From a virus: DNA of 64,000 bases. The notes below the pieces were generated by a model. That model had not been told where the DNA came from, ran no database searches, and was given only the letters and a program-made list of their open reading frames with translations. The translations under genes were made by a program, and so were the position numbers. Shown here piece by piece: positions 36,566-61,202 of the stretch. The stretch lies in IMG/VR virus record IMGVR_UViG_3300047471_000729, positions 28,967 to 92,966 of that record; one strand, written 5' to 3'. Every line of letters begins with the position of its first letter. The first letter of the stretch is position 1.

Positions 36566-36666
36566 CATATAAGCATTTTGCGGCACATTGCAATAGCTGG
36601 TGTGGTAAAAAAATTGCTCAAAGTAGCAATTTTGTGCTTGTCATGCGCGACAGCATCAGCTATTAT
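36566..36666. promoter_or_regulatory. Divergent promoter region with two TTGC-N8-GCAA sites
   Basis: Sites at 36578-36593 and 36614-36629; rightward TTGTCA-N17-TATTAT at 36638-36666. Confidence 0.75.
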
Positions 36667-36710
36667 CCGCTGTGTTCGCAAATTCGCAACACAGGATAGA
36701 GGAGCAAAAA

Positions 36711-37232
36711 GTGGTAACCAGAGCGCAATTGGTTGACGCGGCCAACGAGCTCAACACGGTTCTTTCGCTCGATCCAAAGATTGATCTGAAGATGGCCGTC
36801 ATTGAGCTTACAGCCAGCGTCCATGAGGCAGGTGAACTGCTGCGACCGGGAGACGATGTCTCTCCGGAAACACAGGCCATCGTTGATGCGTTGAAAGCCG
36901 GTACCGAACCGGCCGAGGCGGAACAGGAGCCCGAGCCCGAGGTCGAAGAGGAGGGTGAGGTTGTCACCAAGCCTCGTCGTACTCGTGGTGACACGGCCGC
37001 ACCCGCAACTACGCCAACTCGGCGTGGTGGTGGGTTCCGCTATGAAGGCAGTGGTGCTCAGAAGATGGACCTGGCGCTGATGCGCGGTGGGCCCATTAGC
37101 GATCTGGCCGAAGAGGCTGGTGTCAAGAAGGGAATGCTGCGCGCCCATGCAAAGTTTCGGGCGAAGAGCGGCAAGTGGTCGATGAGCGAGGATGGTGAAT
37201 ACATCCAGTTGACCAAGCTCGACGCTGCATAG
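36711..37232 (+). CDS. Acidic hypothetical protein with C-terminal HTH-like segment
   Basis: GAGGAG RBS + GTG; own promoter and terminator; host-like GC-rich codons. Confidence 0.65.
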   Translation: MVTRAQLVDAANELNTVLSLDPKIDLKMAVIELTASVHEAGELLRPGDDVSPETQAIVDALKAGTEPAEAEQEPEPEVEEEGEVVTKPRRTRGDTAAPATTPTRRGGGFRYEGSGAQKMDLALMRGGPISDLAEEAGVKKGMLRAHAKFRAKSGKWSMSEDGEYIQLTKLDAA

Positions 37233-37250
37233 CCCAATGTTGCTGAAATA

Positions 37251-37286
37251 GGGTGGGCGAAAATTTATTTTTCGCCTGCCCTTTTT
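37251..37286 (+). terminator. Intrinsic terminator
   Basis: GGGTGGGCGAAAA...TTTTCGCCTGCCC-TTTTT. Confidence 0.8.
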
Positions 37287-37338
37287 CATGTGTTCGAATT
37301 CGCGTATAATAATTTGATGCCTATTTTTGGGGGAAGCA

Positions 37339-37908
37339 ATGGTTGATTGGTTAAAGGTCAGACAAGGAGTCATTGATATTCTGGATGGTTTGGGATTGGA
37401 TGCTAGAGATCCAAACTTTTTCGATACACCGGATCGGGTTGTGCGGGCTTATCAAGAGATCTTTGCAGGTCTAGATGAACGGAATACCGTTGAAGAGATG
37501 CTTAAAAGTGTGTTCCCCTGTGAACACCAACAGATGATTTTAGTTAAACATGTTGAAGTGTTTAGTATGTGTCCTCATCATCTTCTTCCAGTCCGTTATG
37601 ATATTACGGCTGGGTACTTACCTGGTCCGGGGATTCGAGCAAAGGTCTTGGGCCTGTCAAAATTGGCTAGGATCACAAAGCTTCTAGCTGCCCGACCTGT
37701 TCTTCAGGAGCAAGTGGTTAACGATATCGCCAATACTCTAATGCGTATACCTGAATGTCGTGGGGCTGGCTGCATTGCTACTGGTGAACACTATTGTATG
37801 CGTATGCGTGGAGTCAATCAGAGTGGCTCAATTGTTGTTACCAGCGCCTTGCGTGGTGAGTTCTTATCTGATTCAATGGTCCGTGAAGAATTCATGGACT
37901 TTAGATAG
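37339..37908 (+). CDS. folE: GTP cyclohydrolase I
   Basis: DTPDRVVRAY, SMCPHHLLP, GLSKLAR, LQEQ, HYCMRMRGV. Confidence 0.95.
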   Translation: MVDWLKVRQGVIDILDGLGLDARDPNFFDTPDRVVRAYQEIFAGLDERNTVEEMLKSVFPCEHQQMILVKHVEVFSMCPHHLLPVRYDITAGYLPGPGIRAKVLGLSKLARITKLLAARPVLQEQVVNDIANTLMRIPECRGAGCIATGEHYCMRMRGVNQSGSIVVTSALRGEFLSDSMVREEFMDFR

Positions 37909-37917
37909 GAGAAGTAG

Positions 37918-38577
37918 ATGGGTATCGCTGTTGTTACTGGAGCATCTTCTGGTATTGGTAAGGCAATCTATGATCACTTTAATACAAGCGACCGGTTTGA
38001 TAGTGTTGTTGGTATAGCTAAGAACGGTCCGGATCTTGAATATGACTTGTCGAGTGAGAAGGATATTCAAGAGATTGTGGATGACCTGCGCACCGCAGGT
38101 GACATTTCTTGTCTTGTAAATTGTGCGGGAATTTTGAAGCTTGAAGAGGTTGGAAATGAAGGTCAGATATTTGACGTTAACTTTTGGGCGCCATACTACC
38201 TGACTAATGCACTAAAGCATGAGTTGATTGCTGCACGTGGTTGTGTTATCAATATTGCCTCAGTTAGTGGGATGATTGCCGAGCCTGAGATTCCGATCTA
38301 TGCCGCATCTAAGGCCGCGCTGATTTCACTGACCAAGAGTCTCGCTATTAGGTTCTCACCCTTTTTTGTTAGGGTGAATTGCATTAGTCCTGGATTTGTT
38401 AAGACGAATCTGATTCCGGGTGATACACCAATTGAACTTCTCAACGCAATCCCCTTAGGGTTTGAAGCAGAACCCGCAATGCTCCTTCCAGTCGTCGATA
38501 TGATACTTGATTGTCCTTACGTTACTGGTGCAAACTTTGTAGTTGACGGCGGGGGTTCTTGTAGAGCTGCAATGTAA
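37918..38577 (+). CDS. Short-chain dehydrogenase/reductase
   Basis: TGASSGIG, LVNCAG, NIAS, YAASK, VNCISPG, VVDGG. Confidence 0.93.
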   Translation: MGIAVVTGASSGIGKAIYDHFNTSDRFDSVVGIAKNGPDLEYDLSSEKDIQEIVDDLRTAGDISCLVNCAGILKLEEVGNEGQIFDVNFWAPYYLTNALKHELIAARGCVINIASVSGMIAEPEIPIYAASKAALISLTKSLAIRFSPFFVRVNCISPGFVKTNLIPGDTPIELLNAIPLGFEAEPAMLLPVVDMILDCPYVTGANFVVDGGGSCRAAM

Positions 38578-38610
38578 TGTGAGACACGGTGCCACGTAAG
38601 GGAAGGTAAG

Positions 38611-39681
38611 ATGTCTGAATTACACACACCACGGTACTCCTGCATATTCCAGTCGAGAATGTGCCCACGTTCTTGTTCCTATTGTCTGAGCAAAGACGTT
38701 AGAGGAGATGGGACTTTTCTGTCACCGGAGCAATGGGCAGATGGATTACACATTCTGGAGTATCATGGTGTCCAGTTCCACTTGTTTATCGGTAATGAAC
38801 TGTTTTCCTATTCCGATCCTGTTGGCTTTGTCAAGGCAATCAAACCCTTCTATGGGAGGTATGGTATCTATTCGACATTCCCACCAGGATGGACTGAAAA
38901 ATATTTTGATGACTGTATTAACGCTGGTCTGTATAACATCTCTGGTGGTGTGGACGTCCTTCCCGGGTTACATAAGACAGGTGACGTCCACATTGATCGC
39001 AAGGCTCAAGCGGTGCTTAGTTGGTTGGAGTATGCGCTGATGCGCGGTGTACCGGACGTGCAAGCGCAAATTACTATTCATCGACACAATTACGATAAGC
39101 TCTATCCATTGCTTGACTTGTGTACAGAAAAGGGGATGTGGGTTGGGTGTTCTCTAGTAGAAGCATCTGCGGATGGACTACACGATTTTTACGGTACTGC
39201 TGATACAATGACTGAATGGTTAATACCAGCAGATGAACGTAACAAGTTTAGCGATGAGATGTACAAGTTAGCGGATGAGGTTGCCACCGGCAGGTGGAAG
39301 ATGCAGTTACCACCAACATACTTTCGTGAACTAGCAGATCGTGAAGTGAGGCGTGATCCTTGGCATTGCAGTTTGCCTATGCTGATCTCAATTGAAGAGG
39401 ATGGTTCTCTGCGCGGGTGCGGGTATAGGGGACCACTATCAGAAAAATATTCGATATTCGACCTTCGTGAGGGCGGAAAGTTGCCCATGTCTGAGTATAT
39501 AAGGTTGCAGAGGGAAAAGACCAGTCAGTGCCCTGGTTGTGGAGTTGGTGGCGGGGCTTGGTCGTTCTGGTGGATGGCTGAGTATTGGTTAAAGGGTGAT
39601 GTGGCAATGGGAGACAGAATCTTCCAGACACATGCACCGGGGCATCTCTTTGAAGCGACGGTGAGACAGGATGAGCAATAA
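38611..39681 (+). CDS. Radical SAM protein with SPASM/twitch-like C-terminus
   Basis: CPRSCSYC (CxxxCxxC); WHC...IEEDGSLRGC...CPGC. Confidence 0.85.
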   Translation: MSELHTPRYSCIFQSRMCPRSCSYCLSKDVRGDGTFLSPEQWADGLHILEYHGVQFHLFIGNELFSYSDPVGFVKAIKPFYGRYGIYSTFPPGWTEKYFDDCINAGLYNISGGVDVLPGLHKTGDVHIDRKAQAVLSWLEYALMRGVPDVQAQITIHRHNYDKLYPLLDLCTEKGMWVGCSLVEASADGLHDFYGTADTMTEWLIPADERNKFSDEMYKLADEVATGRWKMQLPPTYFRELADREVRRDPWHCSLPMLISIEEDGSLRGCGYRGPLSEKYSIFDLREGGKLPMSEYIRLQREKTSQCPGCGVGGGAWSFWWMAEYWLKGDVAMGDRIFQTHAPGHLFEATVRQDEQ

Positions 39682-39928
39682 GCCAACAGTTGCTGAAGTG
39701 ATGATAAAATTTCTTGTTGAAGAAAAGATTGCCAATCCTCATTCGACATCTAAGAATGCCTCGGATGAAGAAGCGATAGCAATTTACGATAATTGTGTGG
39801 CATTTGTTGAGCGTTATTACCCTGATGTTACTACAGAAGAACTCCGCAAGGCTTTTCGTAAAGTACACAAGACTCCAGCGTCGAAGATGTGGGCTATAGC
39901 GAATAAGTACAAGGGTGGTACTGCATGA
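39671..39928 (+). CDS. Hypothetical protein
   Basis: Overlapping ORF in the modification operon. Confidence 0.6.
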   Translation: MSNKPTVAEVMIKFLVEEKIANPHSTSKNASDEEAIAIYDNCVAFVERYYPDVTTEELRKAFRKVHKTPASKMWAIANKYKGGTA

Positions 39929-40602
39929 AGTCCTATTCAAAGAAGACAATCAAGCGATTTAACCTAACCATTGAAGGTGATGAATTTAATGATGCTGAAC
40001 AGAATAAATCACTCTATGATGATCACGTGAGTGGATATGATGAGTTGACTAAGTTGTTAGACATCAATGATACAACCTATGTCTATCGTAAGGTACTCAA
40101 TGTTGGTGCAGGTTCGGGTTCTCCGTTAAAGTTTCCCCATCCAGTTGATATGTACTATCTTGAGCCCAATCCAGATCGGGTTGAAGAGATTGATGTCGAT
40201 CGTGATGATAACATAATCTCTGGTTGGTGTGAGAACATCGAGACTGAACTAAAGTTTGATATGATTATCTGTTGGGGAACATTGTGCTTTGTACGTTCTA
40301 TACCAGAAACCCTAATTCAGTTTAATGATCGTTTGTTTAAAGAAGGTATGTTGGTACTAGATGTAGTTAAATCAACATCATTCCCACTATGCCAGACTGC
40401 TGATCCTGATAGTTTTATTAGAAATGTGAGTTTGTATGGGTTTGAATTACAACATCGTATCCCCTTTGATCATTTGGGACACAATCGTGAGGGGATTCGC
40501 TTTAAGAAGGTTCGCGACTTTGACCCTAGGTATCTGCGGATGCCTCAGGCTAAGGATGGCTTGAGGAACTTCATCCCTGAGAGAGACTGGTTTCTATCTT
40601 AG
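39925..40602 (+). CDS. Class I SAM-dependent methyltransferase
   Basis: VLNVGAGSG (motif I), LEP, FDMIICWGTL, L..EGMLVL. Confidence 0.8.
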   Translation: MKSYSKKTIKRFNLTIEGDEFNDAEQNKSLYDDHVSGYDELTKLLDINDTTYVYRKVLNVGAGSGSPLKFPHPVDMYYLEPNPDRVEEIDVDRDDNIISGWCENIETELKFDMIICWGTLCFVRSIPETLIQFNDRLFKEGMLVLDVVKSTSFPLCQTADPDSFIRNVSLYGFELQHRIPFDHLGHNREGIRFKKVRDFDPRYLRMPQAKDGLRNFIPERDWFLS

Positions 40603-40612
40603 AGGAGATAAC

Positions 40613-41167
40613 ATGACACCTGGTCTAGTCGTTCTTACCAGCGGTGGTTTTGATAGTGCATTATTGTTACACATGGCAAAGCGGATGAACTATAATCCAA
40701 TCGCCCTATTGATTGATTATGGTCAGAAACACGTTCGGGAATTGGATGCTGCTGTTAAGTTGTGCGATGATCTCCAGGTTTCCTTTAAGCGGATGAAGGT
40801 TGATCTTGCTCAAGCAGTTGACTCTGGGTTGACTGGTACTTTGCAGGGTGGTAAGTATGAGGGACTGCATGAGATGCACGTCCCTGGACGCAACACTATC
40901 TTTGTTGGTCTAGCTCTGTCACTGGCAGAAGCTGTCGGTGCAACAAAGATTTGGTATGGAGCGAATTTTGAGGACCGGATAAATGAGTTTGCGGACTGCA
41001 AACAAGACTGGGTCCTCGAGATGAACAAGTCTCTAAAGATCGCGGGAAGCTACCCAGTGGAGTTGGAAGCCCCTTTGCTTGGGATGCGCAAGGACACTAT
41101 TGTGCGCATGGGTAAGCTGTACCACGATATTAAGGAAGAGGAGGTTCACAGTGGGTATGCCGTCTAA
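40613..41167 (+). CDS. queC: QueC-like 7-cyano-7-deazaguanine synthase, lacking the C-terminal Zn site
   Basis: SGGFDS PP-loop, DYGQKH..EL, VPGRN, FADC, APLL...K; ends HSGYAV* where QueC has SCY...CxxCxxC. Confidence 0.85.
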   Translation: MTPGLVVLTSGGFDSALLLHMAKRMNYNPIALLIDYGQKHVRELDAAVKLCDDLQVSFKRMKVDLAQAVDSGLTGTLQGGKYEGLHEMHVPGRNTIFVGLALSLAEAVGATKIWYGANFEDRINEFADCKQDWVLEMNKSLKIAGSYPVELEAPLLGMRKDTIVRMGKLYHDIKEEEVHSGYAV

Positions 41168-41978
41168 TAATGATAAGAAGATTCTTCACTGGAGATCCAC
41201 GGCAAACGGAGGTGATCCTTCTTCTCCTACACAACCGGATTTGCCTGATGGGTTTATCACTATAAGGGAGGCTGTTAGTCTTACAGGTTTTTCTAAAACA
41301 ACTATTCGTAAAACAAAAGTGACCCATCGACAAGAATGGCGTAGGATAGATGGGAGGGTATTTGTACGCAAAGACTTTATCTTGGAATATTGTGCGGTTA
41401 GAGCTAGGCTTAGGGCTAGACCTGAACCCAGGAGGCGGAAAAAGAAGTACCCTAATCGTGTACCTGCTCGTTTTTTACTGCCTCTTAAACCAGGTGAATG
41501 GTTTATTAGGACTGAAGTTGAGAGGAGAAAGGGAACAGAAGGTGTATACCTTCACTTTGTCTCTGGTGATGATCTTTCCGATCTGAATATCTACTCGTTT
41601 GATTGTATGTATAACGCGCTTAAAGCTGGTGGGTATTCTGAACTTAAAGGTTTACCAGAATGGACTGCAGTGACGGTTCCTAAGAATCGTAATATTCCGC
41701 AGTTAGAATTTGAACACAAGTATACAAAGAGGGAACAGGGTTTAGGTCATGTATGCCGAATTGGTACAACGGATGGTGCAGCTATTCCTTCCTGGATGAA
41801 GGCTCCTGGTTTGATGAAAGGTAAAATGGAGAGGGAATCGTTTGTAGGAAAGACTATTCTGCGAATTACGGCTACTCAAATGATCGAGATGGAGGGTTTT
41901 ACACCTGGAGAGTTTGTGGACGAACGTATAAAAGAAGAAGGAAAAGCTTACTGGGGTCCTCTTTGGGATTTAACTTGA
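41157..41978 (+). CDS. Hypothetical protein with N-terminal HTH
   Basis: ITIREAVSLTGFSKTTIR, excisionase/MerR-like HTH. Confidence 0.55.
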   Translation: MPSNNDKKILHWRSTANGGDPSSPTQPDLPDGFITIREAVSLTGFSKTTIRKTKVTHRQEWRRIDGRVFVRKDFILEYCAVRARLRARPEPRRRKKKYPNRVPARFLLPLKPGEWFIRTEVERRKGTEGVYLHFVSGDDLSDLNIYSFDCMYNALKAGGYSELKGLPEWTAVTVPKNRNIPQLEFEHKYTKREQGLGHVCRIGTTDGAAIPSWMKAPGLMKGKMERESFVGKTILRITATQMIEMEGFTPGEFVDERIKEEGKAYWGPLWDLT

Positions 41979-41982
41979 GGGA

Positions 41983-42369
41983 ATGAAAATGGAAGAGCAG
42001 ATCGCACACACTATGCTGATGAATAAGCACTATAGCCCGATGGTTGTCAGGAAGACCTCAACATGGGGCTTCCCAGTGTTTGTTGCTTTGATCACCGATG
42101 ACGACTTGGCGGATCTGGATCAGGTTATTCTAAAGTTTATGCTGGATGCAAAGGCAGTCAACGGGTGGTCAGATAATATTCAAAAGATGCGCAACCTGGC
42201 GGGAGCAATGGTTGAGATGCTCAATAATAGGTATCCGAAGGTTGAAGGATCAGCTGTGATAATTTATTCAGACAAATGCTTCATCTCTAGTTTGCATGGC
42301 GATCTGATGACACATCTTAGTTGTAAAGTTGAACTTTTCGAGCTTCTCAATATGAGTACTGGAGTTTAG
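41983..42369 (+). CDS. Hypothetical protein
   Basis: GAGGG RBS; in operon. Confidence 0.6.
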   Translation: MKMEEQIAHTMLMNKHYSPMVVRKTSTWGFPVFVALITDDDLADLDQVILKFMLDAKAVNGWSDNIQKMRNLAGAMVEMLNNRYPKVEGSAVIIYSDKCFISSLHGDLMTHLSCKVELFELLNMSTGV

Positions 42370-42371
42370 TT

Positions 42372-42521
42372 ATGTCTCGTCCACGTGGGTATAAACATAC
42401 TGAGGCTACCCGAAAGAAGCTTAGTGAAGGAACTAAATTACGTTATGAGGCTGGGATATTGATGGGGTTTCGTGCTAAACCGTTGTCTGAGGAGGCACAC
42501 GTTATGCTCAATTCCGTGTGA
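42372..42521 (+). CDS. NUMOD3-motif small protein (49 aa, not in the ORF track)
   Basis: GGAG RBS; GYKHTEATRKKLSE. Confidence 0.55.
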   Translation: MSRPRGYKHTEATRKKLSEGTKLRYEAGILMGFRAKPLSEEAHVMLNSV

Positions 42522-42970
42522 CAAAAGATGAGAAGTCATCTAAGGAATTAGCCATCTATGTCAACCATGCAGTGGATGGACACGTTTGCGCTGACTGTTC
42601 TATGTTTGATCCACCTGCCTCTTGCAATGCAGTGGCTGGTCCAATTAGTCCAGCGGGTCATTGCAGTTTCTGGACGGCCAAAGAAAACAATCTAAGAATA
42701 AGCAGTTTCCAAGGCTTACCCGTATTTATTGAGACATCTAAAGGTGAAAGACGTAGACAAGATTGGCCTATTATGCCAGCACACTATGGATTTATTACTA
42801 TGACTAACTCACCAGAAAAGAATGATGGATTAGACGTCTTTATTGGAGACAATAAAGCCTGTCGTCACTGTTGGATTATTGACCAAATCCATCCAGATAC
42901 AGAGGAGTTTGTCAATGACTTCCGAGATTCGTGGTCTTGTAACTTGCGAAATTCAAGAGATGCTCCATGA
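42518..42970 (+). CDS. HiPIP-like 4-Cys domain fused to a partial phage inorganic-pyrophosphatase-like domain
   Basis: CADCSMF....SCNAVAGPISPAGHCSFW, then GLPVFIE.SKG..R...MPAHYGFI...DGLDVFIG...IIDQ. Confidence 0.6.
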   Translation: MTKDEKSSKELAIYVNHAVDGHVCADCSMFDPPASCNAVAGPISPAGHCSFWTAKENNLRISSFQGLPVFIETSKGERRRQDWPIMPAHYGFITMTNSPEKNDGLDVFIGDNKACRHCWIIDQIHPDTEEFVNDFRDSWSCNLRNSRDAP

Positions 42971-43428
42971 CGATAGCGATATGGGCTCCCCATGCAGATG
43001 ACGAGATAATTGGTTGCTACCATGTACTTATGTCTAAAGAAAAGGTACAAGTATACTATGGGGGGATTGTTGAAGATGGCTGCAAGAGAGCCTCTAGACT
43101 ATTCGGTTTCGAATTTTACCATCTCAGCAATCTCGCTCGTCCTTGGGATGTCGTCTATGCTCCTGATCCTAATGTGGATATGCATCCGGAGCATCGCCGA
43201 TTAGGCCAGATGGCCCATCAAATGTTTAGGGCGGGCAAGATAAGGCGAGTAATTCACTATTGTACAACGATGCAGGCGCCGTATATATTTGAAGTACCAG
43301 ATCCCGAGGCAAAGCGGAATGCGTTGAATCAATGCTATCCTGAAAAGGGAGATTTATGGCGATACGAATGGAAATATGTATTATTTGAAGGATACTGGGA
43401 GGTATTAAGATTGGATCATAGAAAATGA
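42967..43428 (+). CDS. PIG-L/LmbE-family deacetylase
   Basis: APHADDEIIG and HPEHR metal motifs. Confidence 0.85.
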   Translation: MTIAIWAPHADDEIIGCYHVLMSKEKVQVYYGGIVEDGCKRASRLFGFEFYHLSNLARPWDVVYAPDPNVDMHPEHRRLGQMAHQMFRAGKIRRVIHYCTTMQAPYIFEVPDPEAKRNALNQCYPEKGDLWRYEWKYVLFEGYWEVLRLDHRK

Positions 43429-44372
43429 GACTGATAGTTGTACCCCAATATCCTGCGCAGCTACGATATCAATCCTGGTGGTTGACACGACTTGAAGATT
43501 ACTATCTGTACTTTGATAAGGTACTTATCCTCCACCCACCGCAGTTTACCAATCAAGCTCATTTAAGTGGTGAATTTGCCCCGGCAATGGCGGCAATTGA
43601 TTATGAGGTTAGACAGATCAGTTTGTATAATCAGTTAGTAATTGATGAAGAGGATGATATATTACTTCTTTGTGATATTAGCTTTCCTGGACTATTCTCA
43701 TCTGTTTTATTTCATAAGCGTCCTAAGAAATGCTTTGCCATTTGCCACGCAACATCGCTTAATAGGTATGATTACTTTGCTGCGGTGCGTCCCGGGAAGT
43801 GGAGAGTGGAAACAGGGACTAGCAAGATATTTGATAAGATTTTTGTGGCAAGTGAGTATCATAAGGAGCGGTTAGGCTGGAAGAACACGGTGGTGATCAA
43901 GTTTCCGTTACCAAAGATTGATGAATTAGTGGAAAAGCGGTTGAGTAAGGAGCAACAACATCACCATAGTAGATCGTTTATTAGTGTGGCCCGGAAAGGG
44001 GTGCAAAAGATTGATTTAGAATTGGAGAGGTTTTTTGAATGGAGTGAGAGGACTAGTATACACAGGTTTTATCAAACTAAAGGTAAGACTTGGACTGATT
44101 ACTATGGATTTGTTGAGGCTGGGCGGTTTATGATTATTACTTCCCGCGAAGAGACTTATGGCTATCAAGTCATAGACGCGTTATCAGTAGGCACTATTCC
44201 ACTTGCTCCAAGAGCATTGTCCTACCCTGAATTGTTACCAGATGAAAATTTATACGAACCCGGAAGGGCTACTGATCTGATAGATACGTATAAAAGGTAT
44301 GGAGATAAGCCCGCGCCTCCTTTGTGGGAAGACAAGTTCTTTGAGTTCACAGCAACTGAGATGAAAAGATGA
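43425..44372 (+). CDS. GT-B (GT4-like) glycosyltransferase
   Basis: IFVASEYHK; ITSREETYGYQVIDAL..GTIPLAP..LSYPELL, the ExF/YG...(E/D)A donor-binding motif. Confidence 0.75.
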   Translation: MRLIVVPQYPAQLRYQSWWLTRLEDYYLYFDKVLILHPPQFTNQAHLSGEFAPAMAAIDYEVRQISLYNQLVIDEEDDILLLCDISFPGLFSSVLFHKRPKKCFAICHATSLNRYDYFAAVRPGKWRVETGTSKIFDKIFVASEYHKERLGWKNTVVIKFPLPKIDELVEKRLSKEQQHHHSRSFISVARKGVQKIDLELERFFEWSERTSIHRFYQTKGKTWTDYYGFVEAGRFMIITSREETYGYQVIDALSVGTIPLAPRALSYPELLPDENLYEPGRATDLIDTYKRYGDKPAPPLWEDKFFEFTATEMKR

Positions 44373-45457
44373 AAAACTATGTGGTAATGTTGGATAGCGG
44401 TGCCTGGACTGCCCATACCAAGGGTATGACGATTAACTTGGATAAGTATGCAGAATTTGTTCATCAGAATAAACATCTGTTTGGTGGTGGTGTGTTCAAT
44501 TTGGACTTCATAGATCCACCGGTCTCTGCTGCATACCAGACTGAATCAGCTGAAAAGAGCTATAAGAACTGGATTGAGCTGCGCAAGCTTGGGATTGATA
44601 CCATACCTGTTCACCATATTGGCGATGATGACGAGTCATACCTAAAGAAGTATTTAGAGCAGACTGATTATATTGGAATTGGTGCAATTGCCAAACTAAA
44701 CGCTGAAGCTCGAATTTACGGACTTGATTATATCTGGAAAGAATATCTGTCAAATAAGGATGGTACGCCCAGGTATAGATGTCATGGTCTTGGTTTGACT
44801 GATATCAAGATCACGCTGCGCTATCCTTGGTTCTCTGTGGATAGTACTCGTGCGATTATGCTGGCTGCACATGGTGGTATCTTGCTGCCTAAACTTGATG
44901 GTGACAAGTTCTCCTACAGAGAGATATACCAGGTTGCGGTGAGTAATCAAGGTCGTAGTCATTATCGGGGTAAGGGTGATAGTTTTTATGGCATGTCAAA
45001 GCTCATCCAGGGTCAGATAAAGCACTATTGTACTTCGTTAGGTTATGAGTTGGATGATTCTATTGCGGGACGTACACTTAATCCCCTGATGAAGAGTCGA
45101 AAGAAGGTAGATGGTAAGTGGACGTCAGATTTTGCTTCACGTCAATTGGGGTTCCCTGAAGAAGCTGCGCTTGCTGATGCTCCTTTAGTAAGTAACAATG
45201 TAGATGAGAAGAACTTGTCGGCAAGCTGGGTTCCCAGGTTTATCTTTAATCTATATGTGTCGGATCAGTTTATCAAGTATTGGCGCACACAAGGTAAAAC
45301 GATCAGGATCTATAATGTAGTTGGTGGAGGCAATGTGTTCGACACGTTTGTTGTTGGATCACAGAGTGTCCCAGCTAATAGATGCTTGGTCAGTTATGCT
45401 AGGCTTTCCGGTTCCTTTCTTGATCGGTTAAAAGAGGTTGTCAATGGACATCACTAG
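44369..45457 (+). CDS. DpdA/TGT-like deazaguanine base-exchange transglycosylase
   Basis: MLDSGAWT, NLDFI, IPVHH, YIGIG, HGLG, YPWFSVDST form a TGT-barrel motif set; context of folE/queC/queD/queE. Confidence 0.75.
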   Translation: MKNYVVMLDSGAWTAHTKGMTINLDKYAEFVHQNKHLFGGGVFNLDFIDPPVSAAYQTESAEKSYKNWIELRKLGIDTIPVHHIGDDDESYLKKYLEQTDYIGIGAIAKLNAEARIYGLDYIWKEYLSNKDGTPRYRCHGLGLTDIKITLRYPWFSVDSTRAIMLAAHGGILLPKLDGDKFSYREIYQVAVSNQGRSHYRGKGDSFYGMSKLIQGQIKHYCTSLGYELDDSIAGRTLNPLMKSRKKVDGKWTSDFASRQLGFPEEAALADAPLVSNNVDEKNLSASWVPRFIFNLYVSDQFIKYWRTQGKTIRIYNVVGGGNVFDTFVVGSQSVPANRCLVSYARLSGSFLDRLKEVVNGHH

Positions 45458-46908: not shown

Positions 46909-48144
46909 ATGCCAATACCGAGGTTATTCGGGGATAATGAACCTCCAGCTAAAGGTGGGCTGGGTAAACCTCTGTCATGTGTATCTTGTGGTCTGTATAA
47001 TGGACCAATCAACCCAAAGATGCCTCCCTTCGGGGATTTCAAGAAACAGATTATGGTTATTGGTGAAGGACCCGGTGAACAAGAGGATCGAAAAGGTAGA
47101 CCATTCCAGGGACCAACCGGTAATGCTATCAAAGAAGCATTGAGTGATCTTGGTATTGATCTATTTCGTGATTGTATAAATTTGAATGCAGTTAATTGTC
47201 GACCACCTAGTAATAGAGCACCATCTGTCCACGAGATTGCGTGTTGTAGAGCGCGGATAGTGTCCCCCGCTATAGCTGCGCATAGTCCTCGATTAATGCT
47301 GCTACTGGGCGGGAGCGCCGTTACTAGTGTCCTTGGAAGTGTGCTACCGGAAGCGCAGGACTCGAGCATTGGAAAGTGGCGTGGTTTTCACATCCCTCTA
47401 CCGGAATTAGGTGCCTGGATTTGCCCAACGTATCATCCCAGTTATGTTTCCAGGTCCAGTGATAGGCCTGAAGTAGAGACAGTTTGGAAGAATGATTTGA
47501 AACAAGCTATTGACTTGCTAAATGTATCTGTACCCAGAGTAGAGATTTTACGTAATAGGATTGTTCTTCTTCATGGTGAAGAAGAGATTCTTAGAGCATT
47601 GAATAGGGTAAAAGTACGAAAAGGTCTGTTCTCATTTGATTATGAGACTGTAGGATTAAGTGCAAAGTTACACAGTATAGTTTGTGCGTCTTTTTGTCAG
47701 TCACCTGAGCGTGCGTATGCGTTTATGTTTACTGATGCTTCCGAGGCTGTTCGTCAAGCTTGGCGGGATATTCTAGTAAACGAAGATATTGGTAAGATCT
47801 CACATAATCTATCATTTGAATATGAGTGGAGCCGCTTCCATTTTGATATTGATGAGATAAATTGGGCTTGGGATAGTATGCTTGCAGCACATGTTATTGA
47901 TAATCGTACGGGTATTTGTGGGTTAAAGTTTCAATCTTTTATCAATTTTGGTGTTGTAGGGTATGAGAATTTAATCGATCCCTATTTAAAGTCTGTAACA
48001 CCGCGAGATCCCACTGCGCCAAACCGTATACTAGAGTTTATAGAGAGGCATGGTGAAGATGAATGCCTAATCTATTGCGGGATTGACTCCCTTCTCGCCT
48101 ATAGGTTAACCATGAAGCAAATGAAAGAGATTGAAGATGGCTGA
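46909..48144 (+). CDS. Family-4 uracil-DNA glycosylase fused to 3'-5' exonuclease (N-terminal part of a split PolA)
   Basis: CVSCGL, GEGPG..ED..GRPF.G, NAVNCRPP.NR, TYHPS; ExoI FDYET, ExoII HNLSFE, ExoIII YCGID. Confidence 0.9.
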   Translation: MPIPRLFGDNEPPAKGGLGKPLSCVSCGLYNGPINPKMPPFGDFKKQIMVIGEGPGEQEDRKGRPFQGPTGNAIKEALSDLGIDLFRDCINLNAVNCRPPSNRAPSVHEIACCRARIVSPAIAAHSPRLMLLLGGSAVTSVLGSVLPEAQDSSIGKWRGFHIPLPELGAWICPTYHPSYVSRSSDRPEVETVWKNDLKQAIDLLNVSVPRVEILRNRIVLLHGEEEILRALNRVKVRKGLFSFDYETVGLSAKLHSIVCASFCQSPERAYAFMFTDASEAVRQAWRDILVNEDIGKISHNLSFEYEWSRFHFDIDEINWAWDSMLAAHVIDNRTGICGLKFQSFINFGVVGYENLIDPYLKSVTPRDPTAPNRILEFIERHGEDECLIYCGIDSLLAYRLTMKQMKEIEDG

Positions 48145-48343
48145 TGTTCACTTTGATTTTGGTATTTGGAATCAAAAGGCAGGTTGGATAGGAAAGTGCC
48201 CTAAACATGGTCCTCAGCAGAGTGGTCTTTCTATTTCCCTCCCACCCCTAATTAGAAATTATTGTGGTGAATGTTTAATTGAATTGTTAGATCAGTTTTG
48301 TCATCCTCTGGAGTACGTCAATGAAAATGATGGAAGCCTATAA
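48137..48343 (+). CDS. Small Cys/His protein between the polymerase halves
   Basis: CPKHG...YCGEC; overlaps both neighbours. Confidence 0.55.
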   Translation: MADVHFDFGIWNQKAGWIGKCPKHGPQQSGLSISLPPLIRNYCGECLIELLDQFCHPLEYVNENDGSL

Positions 48344-49700
48344 GCTGCTCCAACGAGGGGCTGAAGCTCTTACCCTTGTAGAGGAAGCGGGGATTTGTAT
48401 TGATCTTGTTTATGTTAGGGAGAAACTGGCTTGGGTTGAGCAAAAGTTAAAGCAGTCAGAATTACGACTAAAGAGCAGTGAGTTAGGCATTGCTTGGCTT
48501 GGTCGCTATGGTGATGCAATGAAGATTCAAAGTGTCCCTCAATTGAGACACATCCTTTATCAGGATATGCGAGCTAAACCATTCAAGATGTCTGAGGGTG
48601 GTGAAGAGAGTACAAACGAGGAATCCCTTCGACAGACTAATGTTGATGGTGTTGTCCATTTGTTGCGGATGCGGAGGCTGAAAAAGGCTAAAGATGTTTT
48701 GAAAGTGTTGATTAGATCTACAGTCAATGGCAAGATCCACCCATCTTTTCTGTTGCATACAGTATCAACGTATAGATCGTCTAGTGCTGATCCCAACCTG
48801 CAGAATATACCAGCCCGAGATAAAGAAATTATGGACATCTGTAGAAGGGCGTTTCTTCCCAGCCCTGGTCATATTTTGATGGAGATTGACTTTTCAGGTA
48901 TTGAAGTCGGTATTGCAGCAACTTATCACAAAGATCCTGTAATGATTAAGTACTTACAGGATGAGACAAGTGATATGCACGGGGATATGGCAGGTGAGAT
49001 TTTCTTGCTGCCCAAATTGAATACCCCTCTCAAAGAGATGGAAGGTGGGTATACATTAAGGCAGTCAGCAAAGAACGGGTTTGTCTTCCCGCAATTCTAC
49101 GGTGACTATTACGAGCCCTGCGCGCTTAATGTCGCTTGTTCCTGGTGCAAGCTACCAAAGGATGGAATGTGGAAGCCTAATCACGGTGTTGTATTTAATG
49201 GTAAACCCATAGGGGAACATTTGATATCTAAAGACATTGATTCGTTTAGTGTATTTGTTGATCACATGGAACGGGTACAAAACAACTTTTGGGGCAAGCG
49301 TTTCAAAGTATATAATGCTTGGAGAAAGACTTGGCATTCTAAGTACCAAAAGACCGGTGAATTTGAAATGAAGACCGGGTTTAGGGTCTCCGGTGTTATG
49401 GAAAAGAATCAAGTAATCAATTTCCCTGTACAAGGGGCCGCATTCCATTGTTTGTTATGGTCTTTGATTGAAATGGTAAAGCAGTTAAAGGGTTGGCAGA
49501 GTAAGGTGGTTGGTGAGATACACGACAGTATGCTGATAGATGCACATCCAGACGAGATCTCTGATATTATTCTAATGGCGCAGCAAATCTGCACGGTCGA
49601 TCTACCAAACCACTGGTCTTGGATAGATATACCTATGCGTATCGAAGTTGCTGCCTCAGAAATAGATGGTAACTGGGCTGAAATGAAAGGTGCAGCATGA
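48321..49700 (+). CDS. polA: Family A DNA polymerase, polymerase domain
   Basis: RSSSADPNLQNIP, motif A DFSGIE, motif B RQSAK...FYG, NFPVQG, motif C IHDS. Confidence 0.93.
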   Translation: MKMMEAYKLLQRGAEALTLVEEAGICIDLVYVREKLAWVEQKLKQSELRLKSSELGIAWLGRYGDAMKIQSVPQLRHILYQDMRAKPFKMSEGGEESTNEESLRQTNVDGVVHLLRMRRLKKAKDVLKVLIRSTVNGKIHPSFLLHTVSTYRSSSADPNLQNIPARDKEIMDICRRAFLPSPGHILMEIDFSGIEVGIAATYHKDPVMIKYLQDETSDMHGDMAGEIFLLPKLNTPLKEMEGGYTLRQSAKNGFVFPQFYGDYYEPCALNVACSWCKLPKDGMWKPNHGVVFNGKPIGEHLISKDIDSFSVFVDHMERVQNNFWGKRFKVYNAWRKTWHSKYQKTGEFEMKTGFRVSGVMEKNQVINFPVQGAAFHCLLWSLIEMVKQLKGWQSKVVGEIHDSMLIDAHPDEISDIILMAQQICTVDLPNHWSWIDIPMRIEVAASEIDGNWAEMKGAA

Positions 49701-58958: not shown

Positions 58959-59246
58959 GTGGGGATAGCTATGGTATGGATCCCTCCTCAAGATATTAAC
59001 CTCTCTCCACCTCCTGAAGATGGTGAAGAATTAAAGAAGACATTGATGCGTCGTCGGGAGATACGTGGCACAGGTGTATGTGCCATGTGTGAGAATTCGG
59101 TATTTGGTCGTGATTTAACACTTGATAATGATGATGGTATTTGTGAGCTCGGGGATTTTGAAGGGGGAGATATTTTGTGTTTTTGGTGCTTTGAGGATTA
59201 CGTATTTGGTGACCCTAATGACTTTACACCTGGAGGACATGCGTGA
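58959..59246 (+). CDS. Small Cys-motif protein
   Basis: CAMC...CFWC. Confidence 0.5.
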   Translation: MGIAMVWIPPQDINLSPPPEDGEELKKTLMRRREIRGTGVCAMCENSVFGRDLTLDNDDGICELGDFEGGDILCFWCFEDYVFGDPNDFTPGGHA

Positions 59247-59698
59247 TGTATCAGGTAGTCAAGCGCTACGGTCATGAAGAAGGTTGGTCTTGTACATTCC
59301 GGCAACATCGAGCAACTCACTCTCATTGCCGGTTTATACATGGTTACCCACTAGCATTTGAAATCACTTTTGAATGCGAATTTCTTGATGCTCGTAACTG
59401 GTGTATAGACTTTGGTGGACTGAAGCCACTAAAGGCTTGGCTCCAGTCAATGTTTGATCACAAGATGCTTGTTGCGGAAGATGATCCGCAGATTGAGTTC
59501 TTTAAGCTAATCGCAGACGGTGGTAATGCCATTGCCGACATTGTTATTGTACCCGATGTTGGATGTGAAAAGTTTGCTGAAATGGCCTATTATGAAGCGG
59601 ATCGAATACTTGGGGAGATTGGAGAGAAGCCTAGGGTTAAATTGAGGTCTGTGCGAGTGTCTGAGCATGGAGGCAATAGTGCCATCTTCTCAGGATGA
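59243..59698 (+). CDS. queD: 6-carboxytetrahydropterin synthase
   Basis: HSHCRFIHGY, IDFGGLK, FDHK, CEKFA, SEH..NSA. Confidence 0.9.
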   Translation: MMYQVVKRYGHEEGWSCTFRQHRATHSHCRFIHGYPLAFEITFECEFLDARNWCIDFGGLKPLKAWLQSMFDHKMLVAEDDPQIEFFKLIADGGNAIADIVIVPDVGCEKFAEMAYYEADRILGEIGEKPRVKLRSVRVSEHGGNSAIFSG

Positions 59699-59939
59699 TT
59701 TTTTTGAGTTTCGGCCGAGAGGTGTCTTAGCTCATCGAGGTGATCGATTGGAGCAGCTTCGCGAATTACGGCAAGCTGGTGCACCTCGTTTTATGGTGCG
59801 ACATAATCAATTAAGTCTGTGGGCATACAGACAAGCGTTAAAGAACCCTGCATACTTTTGCAAGGATGTAACCATTCCTGGTCTGCAAGAGAATTTCGTT
59901 AAGTTTGTTATGATACACTATACAGCGGGACGAACATAA
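59667..59939 (+). CDS. Hypothetical protein
   Basis: Between queD and queE; TAATG-coupled to queE. Confidence 0.5.
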   Translation: MEAIVPSSQDDFFEFRPRGVLAHRGDRLEQLRELRQAGAPRFMVRHNQLSLWAYRQALKNPAYFCKDVTIPGLQENFVKFVMIHYTAGRT

Positions 59940-60643
59940 TGCCCGATACGATCCTCATAGCGGAATTGTTTGGTCCTGTTCTGCAAGGGGAGGGTGCACT
60001 AGCGGGAAAGGCTAGTCACTTTATTCGCACTAGTGGTTGCAGTTACCGTTGCACTTGGTGTGACTCTATGCACGCTGTTGACCCAGATCAGATTCAAGCA
60101 AATTCTAGAAAGATGCCTATTGAAGATATTCTTAGAGAGGTAGAGGAACTACCAAAGGTTCCCTGGGTTACATTATCTGGTGGTGATCCGGTTGCTTGGG
60201 ATTTGACTCATTTATGTCTTGAATTAAAGATGATGGGTTACAAGGTTGCTGTTGAAACGCAAGGTGCATTGTGGAATGACTGGCTTGAATTTTCTACCTT
60301 TGTAACCTGTTCCCCCAAACCACCCAGTAGTGGGATGGTGGATAGGCTGGACATTGCAATCTTACAAAAGTATTCAGTTAGGTTTCATGACAATATGGTG
60401 TTCAAGATAGTTGCTTTTGATGATGAAGATCTTGACTTTGTTCAACGTATACATCGCGCCTTCCCAATGATTCCGATGTACATCACGGCTGGTACTCCGG
60501 CAGGTGAAGTGTTTGTCCGCAGGAACATTATCGAAGGGTTCCGCAAGATATCTGAATCTGTATTAAAACGTCCTCAGTTATTTGATGTGACGGTGGGTAT
60601 ACAACAACATGCCCTAATGTATGGGCGGGAGTTGGGGAGATAG
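59939..60643 (+). CDS. queE: 7-carboxy-7-deazaguanine synthase (radical SAM)
   Basis: ELFGPVLQGEG, CSYRCTWCDS, LSGGDP, VETQG, SPKPPSSG. Confidence 0.93.
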   Translation: MPDTILIAELFGPVLQGEGALAGKASHFIRTSGCSYRCTWCDSMHAVDPDQIQANSRKMPIEDILREVEELPKVPWVTLSGGDPVAWDLTHLCLELKMMGYKVAVETQGALWNDWLEFSTFVTCSPKPPSSGMVDRLDIAILQKYSVRFHDNMVFKIVAFDDEDLDFVQRIHRAFPMIPMYITAGTPAGEVFVRRNIIEGFRKISESVLKRPQLFDVTVGIQQHALMYGRELGR

Positions 60644-60808
60644 ATGGAAGAGATTCGCTTTACCGAGTGTCCGGAATGCGGTAAAGAGGTAAAGTATCTG
60701 TGGGATGGAGGAGTCATCCCAACGGAACAATACGTTTTGATTGTCGATTCGATATATCATACCAAGTGCTGGGAGAAGTTAGTTGACGAGCACCCGACAG
60801 AAGGTTAA
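60644..60808 (+). CDS. Small zinc-finger protein (54 aa, not in the ORF track)
   Basis: CPEC...HTKC; GGGGAG RBS. Confidence 0.5.
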   Translation: MEEIRFTECPECGKEVKYLWDGGVIPTEQYVLIVDSIYHTKCWEKLVDEHPTEG

Positions 60809-61202
60809 TCTATTCTGGTCTGATATTGATCACGCGAGTAATCGTTTGATTAAGAAGATGCGAGAGGATTCAATTGTAAAGCCTACAAGTATAATCATGC
60901 CGGTATATCGTGGTGGATTAGTTCCTGGTTCAATGCTTGCCTATGAGTTTGATATTAAGGAGTTGATATGTATTGATCCAAAGATTAGTTATGTTATGTC
61001 TCATTACTCTGATTTGATAGTTGTTGATGACGTTTATGACACGGGTTCGACTTTTGCAAAATTGCAAAACTTCTACCCACACGCTACTTACGTCGCATTG
61101 TTCTCCAAGATTCCTTACGGTTGTCATTACTATGGTAAGCTGGTGGATCCAGATGATTGGTTGGTGTTCCCTTGGGCAAAGAATGATGAAGTAAACAGAT
61201 GA
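60783..61202 (+). CDS. Type I phosphoribosyltransferase (xanthine-guanine PRT-like)
   Basis: RGGLVP, PRPP loop VVDDVYDTGST, WLVFPW. Confidence 0.88.
   Translation: MTSTRQKVNLFWSDIDHASNRLIKKMREDSIVKPTSIIMPVYRGGLVPGSMLAYEFDIKELICIDPKISYVMSHYSDLIVVDDVYDTGSTFAKLQNFYPHATYVALFSKIPYGCHYYGKLVDPDDWLVFPWAKNDEVNR

Follow-up and report, generated by a model that had tools for sequence, protein, structure and literature searches.

Phage 7-deazaguanine systems described to date combine a FolE-QueD-QueE-QueC precursor pathway with a DNA transglycosylase of the DpdA1-4 types, and their products are tailored by QueF, Gat-QueC, ArcS2, DpdL, DpdM or DpdN (Hutinet 2019, PMC6884629; Cui 2023, PMC10516641). Eight DNA deazaguanines have been described; they carry small C7 groups, and none bears a sugar (PMC10516641). 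Here we analyze an operon at positions 37339-45457 of a 64,000-nucleotide stretch of phage DNA, hereafter the window (bases 28967-92966 of IMG/VR record IMGVR_UViG_3300047471_000729, which is 92,966 bp long and rated 98% complete). The core of the operon is a phage DpdA deazaguanine system, and it includes a tailoring module that is lacking in all described systems: a QueC-type PP-loop enzyme without the C-terminal zinc cysteines (hereafter QueC-short), a T-fold protein (orf128), an LmbE/PIG-L-type deacetylase and a GT4 glycosyltransferase. On balance, we lean slightly towards the view that the phage DNA contains a sugar-bearing 7-deazaguanine, with an amino sugar probably attached to the C7 carboxyl or carboxamide, that is inserted by DpdA.

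The genes on which this reading depends are the following; AlphaFold models are given with their predicted local distance difference test (pLDDT) scores.

37339-37908, + strand: FolE, GTP cyclohydrolase I (PF01227, 2.8e-51; NCBIfam NF006826, 1e-54, above its cut-off)
40613-41167, + strand: QueC-short, QueC-type PP-loop enzyme without C-terminal zinc cysteines (PF06508, 1.9e-35)
41983-42369, + strand: orf128, T-fold protein and conserved partner of the QueC-like enzyme (AlphaFold model, pLDDT 85.7)
42967-43428, + strand: LmbE/PIG-L-type zinc deacetylase, CE14-like (PHADDE and HPEH motifs; family profile)
43425-44372, + strand: GT4-like glycosyltransferase (AlphaFold model, pLDDT 90.7, GT-B fold)
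44369-45457, + strand: DpdA, DNA guanine transglycosylase (phrog_887, 1.2e-33)
59243-59698, + strand: QueD/PTPS-family protein (PF01242, 2.1e-15; TIGR03367, 2.8e-8, below its cut-off)
59939-60643, + strand: QueE, 7-carboxy-7-deazaguanine synthase (TIGR03365, 7.3e-57; 192.6 bits, slightly below the cut-off of 206)

FolE, QueD and QueE synthesize 7-carboxy-7-deazaguanine (CDG). The gene set for CDG and preQ0 synthesis is present in the window, with FolE and QueE as strong matches, QueD as a weak one and QueC as the zinc-less variant. The window QueD has CxxxHGY instead of CxxxHGH – that is, one zinc-binding histidine is substituted – and the QueD proteins of two relatives (loci L004 and L002 of the set described next) keep the canonical CxxxHGH.

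We searched IMG/VR with the glycosyltransferase family, read the gene neighborhoods in the 69 loci that it yielded and counted gene presence with family hidden Markov models built from these loci and the window (70 loci in all). The deacetylase is present in 64 loci, QueE in 50, orf128 in 46, a QueC-like gene in 40, FolE in 32 and QueD in 30. DpdA is present in 37, and a further eight carry a jumbo-phage-type DpdA-like protein (~465 residues), which brings the count to 45. Glycosyltransferase loci without que or DpdA genes are short fragments, except for five (L025, L052, L059, L066 and L070). The conserved unit, which adjoins DpdA, thus has four members: PP-loop enzyme, T-fold protein, LmbE deacetylase and GT4 transferase. 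This sugar-tailoring module recurs in ~60 other phage contigs and in two cultured Xanthomonas phages.

The genes of the module are physically close. In the window the deacetylase and glycosyltransferase genes share an ATGA overlap (43425-43428), and the glycosyltransferase and DpdA genes overlap by the same four bases (44369-44372). In 29 of the 35 loci that hold both of the latter genes, no more than 120 bases separate the end of the glycosyltransferase gene from the start of DpdA, and the median gap is -3 bases. Linkage of the glycosyltransferase to DpdA is far beyond chance.

Phages with the module form four groups, with just 21-35% identity between their proteins, yet the glycosyltransferase-deacetylase pair stays with que and DpdA genes throughout. 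Group A, to which the window phage belongs, has the order helicase, QueD, QueE, FolE, (short-chain dehydrogenase), radical SAM enzyme, (methyltransferase), QueC-like, orf128, deacetylase, glycosyltransferase, DpdA, clamp, polymerase. Group B consists of jumbo phages of 220-310 kb, in which the QueC-like gene, orf128, deacetylase and glycosyltransferase are accompanied by a large polymerase-like gene, QueE and a DpdA-like gene; QueD lies elsewhere and FolE was not found. A weak DpdA-like gene lies near the module in 14 of 26 jumbo-phage records, which are mostly fragments, and a tblastn search with the jumbo-phage DpdA-like protein gave no match in 50,697 phage records. Between QueE and the DpdA-like gene the jumbo phages also carry a thymidylate-synthase-like gene (L026:17239-18042; PF00303, 9.1e-10) whose family occurs in 12 other loci, mostly of this group, and which may encode a pyrimidine hydroxymethylase, with a second base modified.

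In group C (L002, L063, L067 and L069) the deacetylase carries at its C-terminus a fused DpdL-like T-fold domain containing LxxxHRHxF, the signature of DpdL (Cui 2023, PMC10516641).

L002:2606-3382: deacetylase-DpdL-like fusion
L063:7791-8531: deacetylase-DpdL-like fusion
L067:7406-8149: deacetylase-DpdL-like fusion
L069:6851-7702: deacetylase-DpdL-like fusion

These fusions tie the deacetylase physically to deazaguanine metabolism. The group C loci further encode a small PP-loop protein (SGGKDS), the glycosyltransferase, QueD, QueE, FolE and DpdA. Group D comprises the cultured 200-kb Xanthomonas phages X1 (L071, OQ427096, 69405-75509) and BUDD (ON758385). Their gene run consists of FolE, a PP-loop protein, the deacetylase, a small open reading frame (ORF), the glycosyltransferase, a 437-residue tRNA-guanine transglycosylase (TGT), a free-standing DpdL-like protein and QueE. 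The glycosyltransferase of this group is 50% identical to that of L066. Most of the group D genes are annotated as hypothetical, and the paper on phage X1 mentions neither DNA modification nor this gene run.

The glycosyltransferase protein itself has no Pfam match. It has 414 homologs at E <= 0.001 (clusters at 90% identity), some with PF00534, and judged by these clusters the module is spread over hundreds of uncultured phage lineages. Consistent with a GT4 assignment, Foldseek returned 249 matches to the model at E <= 0.001, all of those listed being GT-B/GT4 enzymes, with glycogen synthase, BshA, MshA, PimA and tetrahydrobiopterin glucosyltransferase as the best (1e-8 to 1e-6). The stretch EETYGYQVIDA contains E243-x7-D251, which we take to be the C-terminal E-x7-E nucleotide-sugar motif with Asp as its last residue; E242 is invariant in the family, and conservation of E243 and D251 is 90% or higher. 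The family is nearly phage-only, with a single match, on an 11.9-kb contig of a metagenome-assembled genome, in 185,579 species genomes. A pterin glucoside pathway composed of FolE, PTPS, a short-chain dehydrogenase and a tetrahydrobiopterin glucosyltransferase, suggested by the structural match to the last of these, was also considered and is not favored: the dehydrogenase is an accessory, and the conserved neighbors are QueE, the QueC-like enzyme and DpdA.

As a single sequence, the deacetylase scores 20.3 bits against PF02585, below the cut-off of 28.2. Within its family, however, H9, D11, D12, H73 and H76 are invariant in 40 aligned sequences and constitute the full LmbE catalytic set, and the family profile matches four solved diacetylchitobiose (CE14) deacetylases (1.2e-5 to 1.8e-5).

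Canonical QueC (PF06508 cluster 1) is recognized by the motifs SGGxDS, YxQxHxxE, VPxRN and YPDC (PMC13329287). The 184-residue QueC-short carries SGGFDS, YGQKHVRE, VPGRN and FADC and ends in HSGYAV, and these catalytic motifs are conserved across its family. The protein stops at residue 184, where SCY should start, and the C(x)8CxxCxxC zinc site is absent. All four zinc cysteines are likewise missing in 25 of the 28 family members, which share the end ...FSGYG. We considered whether the gene had been split by inserted ORFs, with the zinc motif displaced to a downstream ORF encoding a protein like high-potential iron-sulfur protein (HiPIP). We rejected this on account of the same 25 relatives, which lack the inserted ORFs and share the same end. 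QueC-short is a genuine family. Compared with solved structures in the PDB, its profile matches QueC best (1e-35) and Cap9 second best among families (1e-13).

By sequence, orf128 has no match in Pfam, PHROG or NCBIfam; a tblastn search of the 50,697 phage records gave none either, and its sequence profile matched nothing at E <= 10 among solved structures. The AlphaFold model shows the beta-beta-alpha-alpha-beta-beta order of the T-fold. Consistent with this fold, an exhaustive VIA-align comparison ranked GTP cyclohydrolase I first (Z 11.9 and 10.5), followed by QueF-Like archaeosine synthase (Z 9.5) and QueF (Z 9.0), with dihydroneopterin aldolases, PTPS and urate oxidases at lower ranks and almost all matches to approximately rank 30 being T-fold proteins. 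Foldseek gave only weak E-values (3e-3), all to GTP cyclohydrolase I. An atlas search, with a best score of 0.87 and CRAL_TRIO-like names, fell under the trust level and was set aside. Judged by its model, orf128 shares the fold of pterin- and 7-deazaguanine-binding enzymes, and it would probably hold or process the base. It lacks the DpdL motif LxxxHRHxF, which is confined to the group C fusions and phage X1, and is not QueF by sequence: the QueF profile PF14489 has no match anywhere in the 98%-complete genome. C114 and H111 are nearly invariant in the family, which is small and isolated, with 103 representatives among 1.84 billion proteins and no remote relatives. Two metagenomic proteins (P0158 and P0168) fuse the orf128 domain to a QueC domain, and in a third (P0182) it is fused to a domain resembling nucleoside 2-deoxyribosyltransferase (27.8 bits versus a Pfam cut-off of 28.8). 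Complex prediction for the deacetylase and orf128 families gave a score of 0.00, which counts neither for nor against binding.

The window DpdA is 27-35% identical by tblastn to the DpdA proteins of 9g, Vid5, RHEph and other phages across residues 6-229 (E 1e-18 to 1e-28), and its C-terminal part (approximately residues 230-362, the last 130) has no counterpart in known DpdAs. Within the families, the median isoelectric point is 9.1 for DpdA, 7.0 for the glycosyltransferase, 5.7 for the deacetylase, 5.8 for orf128 and 5.5 for QueC-short. Acidic-to-neutral tailoring enzymes beside a basic DpdA weakly favor tailoring of the free base.

Such charges are also those of small-molecule enzymes, and the product could in principle be a diffusible, huimycin-like deazapurine amino-sugar compound rather than a DNA base, which might, for example, poison a host process or a rival phage. 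Precedents exist: HuiG of the huimycin pathway joins N-acetylglucosamine (GlcNAc), taken from UDP-GlcNAc, to a preQ0 derivative, and a QueC-like amide synthetase of the roseomycin pathway uses adenylated CDG (10.64898/2026.04.15.718813). That study, however, treats the presence of dpdA as a mark of nucleic-acid modification, and the operon here does encode a DpdA, a basic protein whose translation is coupled to that of the glycosyltransferase. The module moreover lies within the replication block of lytic-type phages, and we saw neither exporter nor resistance genes in the operon. We regard a diffusible compound as the least probable of the explanations considered here.

The reading that we prefer places the sugar on a DNA base. 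FolE, QueD and QueE would supply CDG; the four-gene module of zinc-less QueC-type PP-loop enzyme, orf128, LmbE/PIG-L-type deacetylase and GT4 glycosyltransferase would tailor the base; and DpdA, coupled in translation to the glycosyltransferase, would put the product in place of guanine in phage DNA, probably to blunt restriction and other DNA-targeting defenses. GT4 enzymes move a sugar from a nucleotide sugar, LmbE enzymes strip the N-acyl group from glucosamine derivatives, and PP-loop enzymes adenylate a carbonyl or carboxyl oxygen that is then displaced by a nitrogen or sulfur nucleophile. Because the conserved partners of the sugar enzymes are a PP-loop enzyme and a T-fold protein, we expect the chemistry to involve the C7 carboxyl or carboxamide and not a reduced handle.

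Two sub-routes would fit. In a mycothiol-like route, the glycosyltransferase would move an N-acetylhexosamine, the deacetylase would expose its amine, and the PP-loop enzyme would finally adenylate the CDG carboxylate and couple it to the sugar amine as an amide. Alternatively, the PP-loop enzyme would halt at the carboxamide (ADG), to which the glycosyltransferase would add GlcNAc and from which the deacetylase would yield a cationic glucosamine. We see the chances as evenly balanced that the four-enzyme module and DpdA give rise to a DNA purine in the form of a 7-deazaguanine with a de-N-acetylated hexosamine at C7, either joined to the carboxyl by an amide bond or added to the carboxamide by glycosylation. 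Either exact sub-route is much less likely than a sugar-bearing deazaguanine as a whole. The analysis establishes the identities of the genes, their folds, catalytic motifs and fusions, and how they co-occur; which sugar is used, where it is attached, in what order the steps run and whether the base is tailored free or in DNA are inferences.

Several observations weigh against this reading. Three of the 28 QueC-short family members (L003, L019 and L062) are full-length canonical QueC proteins with CxxCxxC beside the same module, so the module does not depend on loss of the zinc site. By structure the glycosyltransferase is a generic GT4, with near-equal matches to many enzymes of this class; given these matches, a GlcNAc donor is suggested only by the neighboring deacetylase. 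The DpdA family profile gave chance-level matches only against solved structures, and no solved TGT by sequence, a result that has no bearing on the fold. A DpdL-like partner accompanies the deacetylase in groups C and D, and if DpdL decarboxylates CDG, no C7 handle would be left; DpdL has been proposed to be a CDG decarboxylase, an activity that was never reconstituted and that, according to its authors, possibly needs other enzymes (PMC10516641). In jumbo phages, a hydroxymethylpyrimidine could be the sugar acceptor. Finally, L066 and L070, from records that are 52% and 21% complete, carry the PP-loop, deacetylase and glycosyltransferase genes next to ribonucleotide reductase and ThyX, with no que or DpdA gene in reach.

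The last two points favor an alternative that we judge unlikely, though the most plausible of those considered: the DNA would contain a known deazaguanine (ADG from a QueC halting at the amide, preQ0, or a preQ1- or archaeosine-type base formed by the T-fold protein), and the glycosyltransferase and deacetylase would act elsewhere, on another DNA base, a protein, the host envelope or a precursor molecule, their linkage reflecting a shared early replication module. The thymidylate-synthase-like gene near the jumbo-phage module and the trio beside ribonucleotide reductase and ThyX would both suit such a division of labor. So would the resemblance of the orf128 fold to QueF-Like and QueF, which makes a known-type product conceivable, and the proposal that a QueC homologue of Campylobacter phages makes ADG (PMC10516641, figure 1 legend). 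The genetic arrangement argues otherwise. Deacetylase and DpdL-like T-fold domain are fused in four loci, the glycosyltransferase overlaps DpdA here and directly adjoins it in most loci that hold both, and the pair tracks que and DpdA genes through all four divergent groups. The window phage also lacks a source of hydroxymethylpyrimidine, as well as a PF14489 match: neither ThyA nor ThyX has a homolog in the 98%-complete genome, so no such handle is available by the usual route, and we rejected hydroxymethylpyrimidine as the sugar acceptor in this phage.

Three further enzymes are encoded between folE and the QueC-like gene.

37918-38577, + strand: classical short-chain dehydrogenase (SDR; PF00106, 6.4e-29)
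38611-39681, + strand: radical SAM enzyme with a Cys-rich C-terminal part (PF04055, 34 bits versus a cut-off of 29.5)
39925-40602, + strand: class I methyltransferase-like protein (Methyltransf_23, 2e-6, weak)

The radical SAM protein has its CxxxCxxC motif as CPRSCSYC at residues 18-25, and further cysteines near the C-terminus. PF13186 (SPASM) does not match it, and its nearest atlas clusters are radical SAM proteins with SPASM in 12-93% of members. Among the 70 loci, SDR is present in 13, the radical SAM enzyme in 30 (all from a single phage group) and the methyltransferase in approximately six, and all three are missing from the jumbo-phage, DpdL-fusion and Xanthomonas-phage groups. They are lineage-specific accessories that may add further decoration to the product.

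An earlier note on this DNA, made from the letters alone, had assigned these three enzymes a core tailoring role, and its route, as we read it, would have SDR, aided by the radical SAM enzyme, reduce the C7 substituent to a hydroxymethyl or aminomethyl handle, followed by O- or N-glycosylation with an N-acetyl sugar, de-N-acetylation and optional methylation. The presence of all three in the same operon is in keeping with such a route, and glucosylation of 5-hydroxymethylcytosine in T-even phages is a precedent for a hydroxymethyl handle. The distribution across loci speaks against it, as does the chemistry of the conserved PP-loop and T-fold partners, which is that of carboxyls and amides, not of reduction; neither a carboxylate reductase nor QueF is present. 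We therefore consider a reduced handle very unlikely: it leaves the conserved module unexplained, and the accessories are not core parts. By contrast, the note's link of sugar tailoring to the DpdA system is borne out by four divergent phage groups in which glycosyltransferase and PIG-L deacetylase accompany DpdA and que genes; SDR, which it had grouped with these two, is kept in 13 of 70 loci. Its statement that no known tailoring gene is recognizable holds in that QueF is absent from the whole genome, and is weakened by the structural alignment of orf128 to QueF-Like and QueF.

Three ORFs of the operon are peculiar to this lineage.

41157-41978, + strand: 273-residue ORF with a helix-turn-helix-like stretch (no Pfam or PHROG match)
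42372-42521, + strand: 49-residue ORF with a NUMOD3-like motif (read from the translation)
42518-42970, + strand: 150-residue protein with a HiPIP-like four-Cys motif and an InPase (pyrophosphatase) domain (PF18823, 5e-10, 39.8 bits)

None has a counterpart in any of the 69 related loci, and we therefore regard them as lineage-specific insertions outside the pathway. The first two break the otherwise conserved order of QueC-like gene, orf128 and deacetylase. From what we take to be its NUMOD3-like motif, the 49-residue ORF is probably a remnant of the DNA-binding module of a homing endonuclease, and together the two look like the remains of a homing-endonuclease-type mobile element. In the third, the HiPIP-like part matches iron oxidase Iro (5.9e-5) and the InPase domain is of a type found in polyvalent phage proteins. 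Next to a PP-loop enzyme, a pyrophosphatase could drive the reaction of that enzyme forward, though the gene is not conserved; the earlier note had counted it as part of the operon, and it falls outside the conserved set.

All genes of 37339-45457 are on the + strand and form a single co-oriented operon. Profile, PHROG, tblastn and structure searches confirmed every gene that the earlier note had named, each at its position and on the + strand and including queD and queE at 59-60 kb, and the two ATGA overlaps proved exact on re-reading. Its gene list had omitted three ORFs between the QueC-like and deacetylase genes: 41157-41978, orf128 itself and 42372-42521. Two features lie upstream of the folE ATG (37339).

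37250-37282, + strand: terminator-like hairpin (14-pair stem, pattern scan)
37283-37310, + strand: promoter-like site (TTTTCA-16-TATAAT, pattern scan, consensus match only)

Judged by these patterns, the two features mark a probable operon start. Just upstream of folE, 36672-37232 encodes an acidic 186-residue protein whose family (f14) is kept in 24 loci and in relatives is encoded between QueE and FolE; Pfam, the sole library searched, gave no match to it. An opposite-strand ORF with an ATG start (36663-37373) overlaps this gene and is probably not a gene.

The operon sits within a long + strand replication block that encodes a DnaB-like helicase, a sliding clamp, a protein combining uracil-DNA glycosylase (UDG) and exonuclease, a family A polymerase, a clamp loader, RecA, an SbcCD-like pair and ribonucleotide reductase. 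The polymerase is split, with a UDG-like domain and a 3'-5' exonuclease in the first gene (46909-48144) and the polymerase domain in the second (48321-49700); many related loci have the same split. Directly 3' of queE and ahead of ribonucleotide reductase lies a xanthine/guanine phosphoribosyltransferase-like gene (60783-61202; NF006613, 6.2e-17), whose product could salvage guanine released by DpdA or form a deazaguanine nucleotide. The window also contains genes for a tail fiber and a baseplate wedge, and the host of the operon is an uncultured phage with myovirus-type baseplate genes.

To our knowledge, sugars on DNA bases have so far been described on pyrimidines only, as in glucosyl-hydroxymethylcytosine and base J. 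If our reading is correct, the base would have no earlier counterpart, as a glycosylated purine in DNA of any kind, in the literature that we searched, and a guanine substitute with a bulky amino sugar, probably cationic, would represent a new class of DNA hypermodification. Its synthesis would also be a new use of QueC-family amine ligation, extending it from host defense to phage counter-defense, and would provide a function for two phage-only families, orf128 and the glycosyltransferase. Such a base would bear on restriction, CRISPR and DNA-glycosylase defenses, on how phage DNA can be sequenced and handled with enzymes, and on DpdA-based site-specific DNA labeling. Since a variant of the module is present in the cultured Xanthomonas phages X1 and BUDD, the prediction is directly testable.

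Compared with described phage DpdA systems, the locus has the same precursor pathway, a DpdA homologous to those of 9g and Vid5, a cluster near replication genes and a presumed role in protection from restriction. It differs in its glycosyltransferase, LmbE deacetylase, orf128 family and zinc-less QueC, which are not among the described tailoring enzymes. The words 'glycosyl', 'sugar' and 'deacetylase' do not occur in the text of Cui 2023 (PMC10516641), and our search of the literature on deazaguanine together with LmbE, deacetylase or glycosyltransferase found no paper on such a module. The claim in the earlier note that no sugar-bearing phage deazaguanine had been described stands in the sense that no paper we found describes one in DNA.

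Sugars on 7-deazaguanines are known in other settings. In huimycin and dapiramicin, as proposed here, GlcNAc is put on a 7-deazaguanine by a dedicated glycosyltransferase, and a methyltransferase is in the cluster; unlike the phage system, these are actinomycete secondary metabolites without DpdA, and the text of the study reports no deacetylase (10.64898/2026.04.15.718813). This 2026 survey of deazapurine gene clusters does not mention phages and set dpdA-bearing clusters aside in its ranking for secondary metabolism. According to a further source, the only established sugar on a 7-deazaguanine within a nucleic acid is that of mannosyl- and galactosyl-queuosine (QTMAN, QTGAL) in vertebrate tRNA (10.64898/2026.06.28.735034). 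That system acts on RNA rather than DNA, places the sugar on the queuosine cyclopentenediol, which the window phage cannot make, and involves no deacetylase. In huimycin the sugar reportedly sits on the exocyclic 2-amine, where in DNA it would clash with base pairing and replication.

A parallel for the predicted coupling step is offered by QueC relatives that join CDG to amines. Cap9 of type IV CBASS and QatC of QatABCD join adenylated CDG to a protein amine (10.1101/2025.04.06.647259; PMC13329287), and RoyL of the roseomycin pathway has been modelled to join it to lysine (10.64898/2026.04.15.718813). Cap9 is a minimal QueC relative of ~185 residues that keeps the QueC catalytic motifs (PMC13329287), and QueC-short is similarly minimal with the same motifs. 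The authors who described Cap9 pointed out that a CDG-amine conjugate leaves N9 free for insertion into nucleic acid (10.1101/2025.04.06.647259; PMC13329287). The two differ in that Cap9 has the zinc motif and, as part of a defense system, acts on the N-terminus of a protein, whereas QueC-short is zinc-less and found in a phage with CDG genes and DpdA.

The overall logic resembles that of mycothiol and bacillithiol synthesis. In these pathways a GT4 enzyme (MshA or BshA) is followed by an LmbE deacetylase (MshB or BshB) and then by an ATP-dependent ligase (MshC) that acylates the freed amine. The phage module likewise has a GT4 enzyme, with BshA and MshA among its best structural matches, an LmbE deacetylase and an ATP-dependent enzyme able to acylate an amine. 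It is distinguished by its ligase, which would be a QueC-type PP-loop enzyme rather than a CysRS-like one, and by the acyl group, which would be the deazaguanine carboxylate. The operon has no orthologous ligase of the MshC (CysRS-like) or BshC type, and the QueC-type PP-loop enzyme is its sole ATP-dependent candidate. The resemblance is, as an analogy, one of logic and not of orthology.

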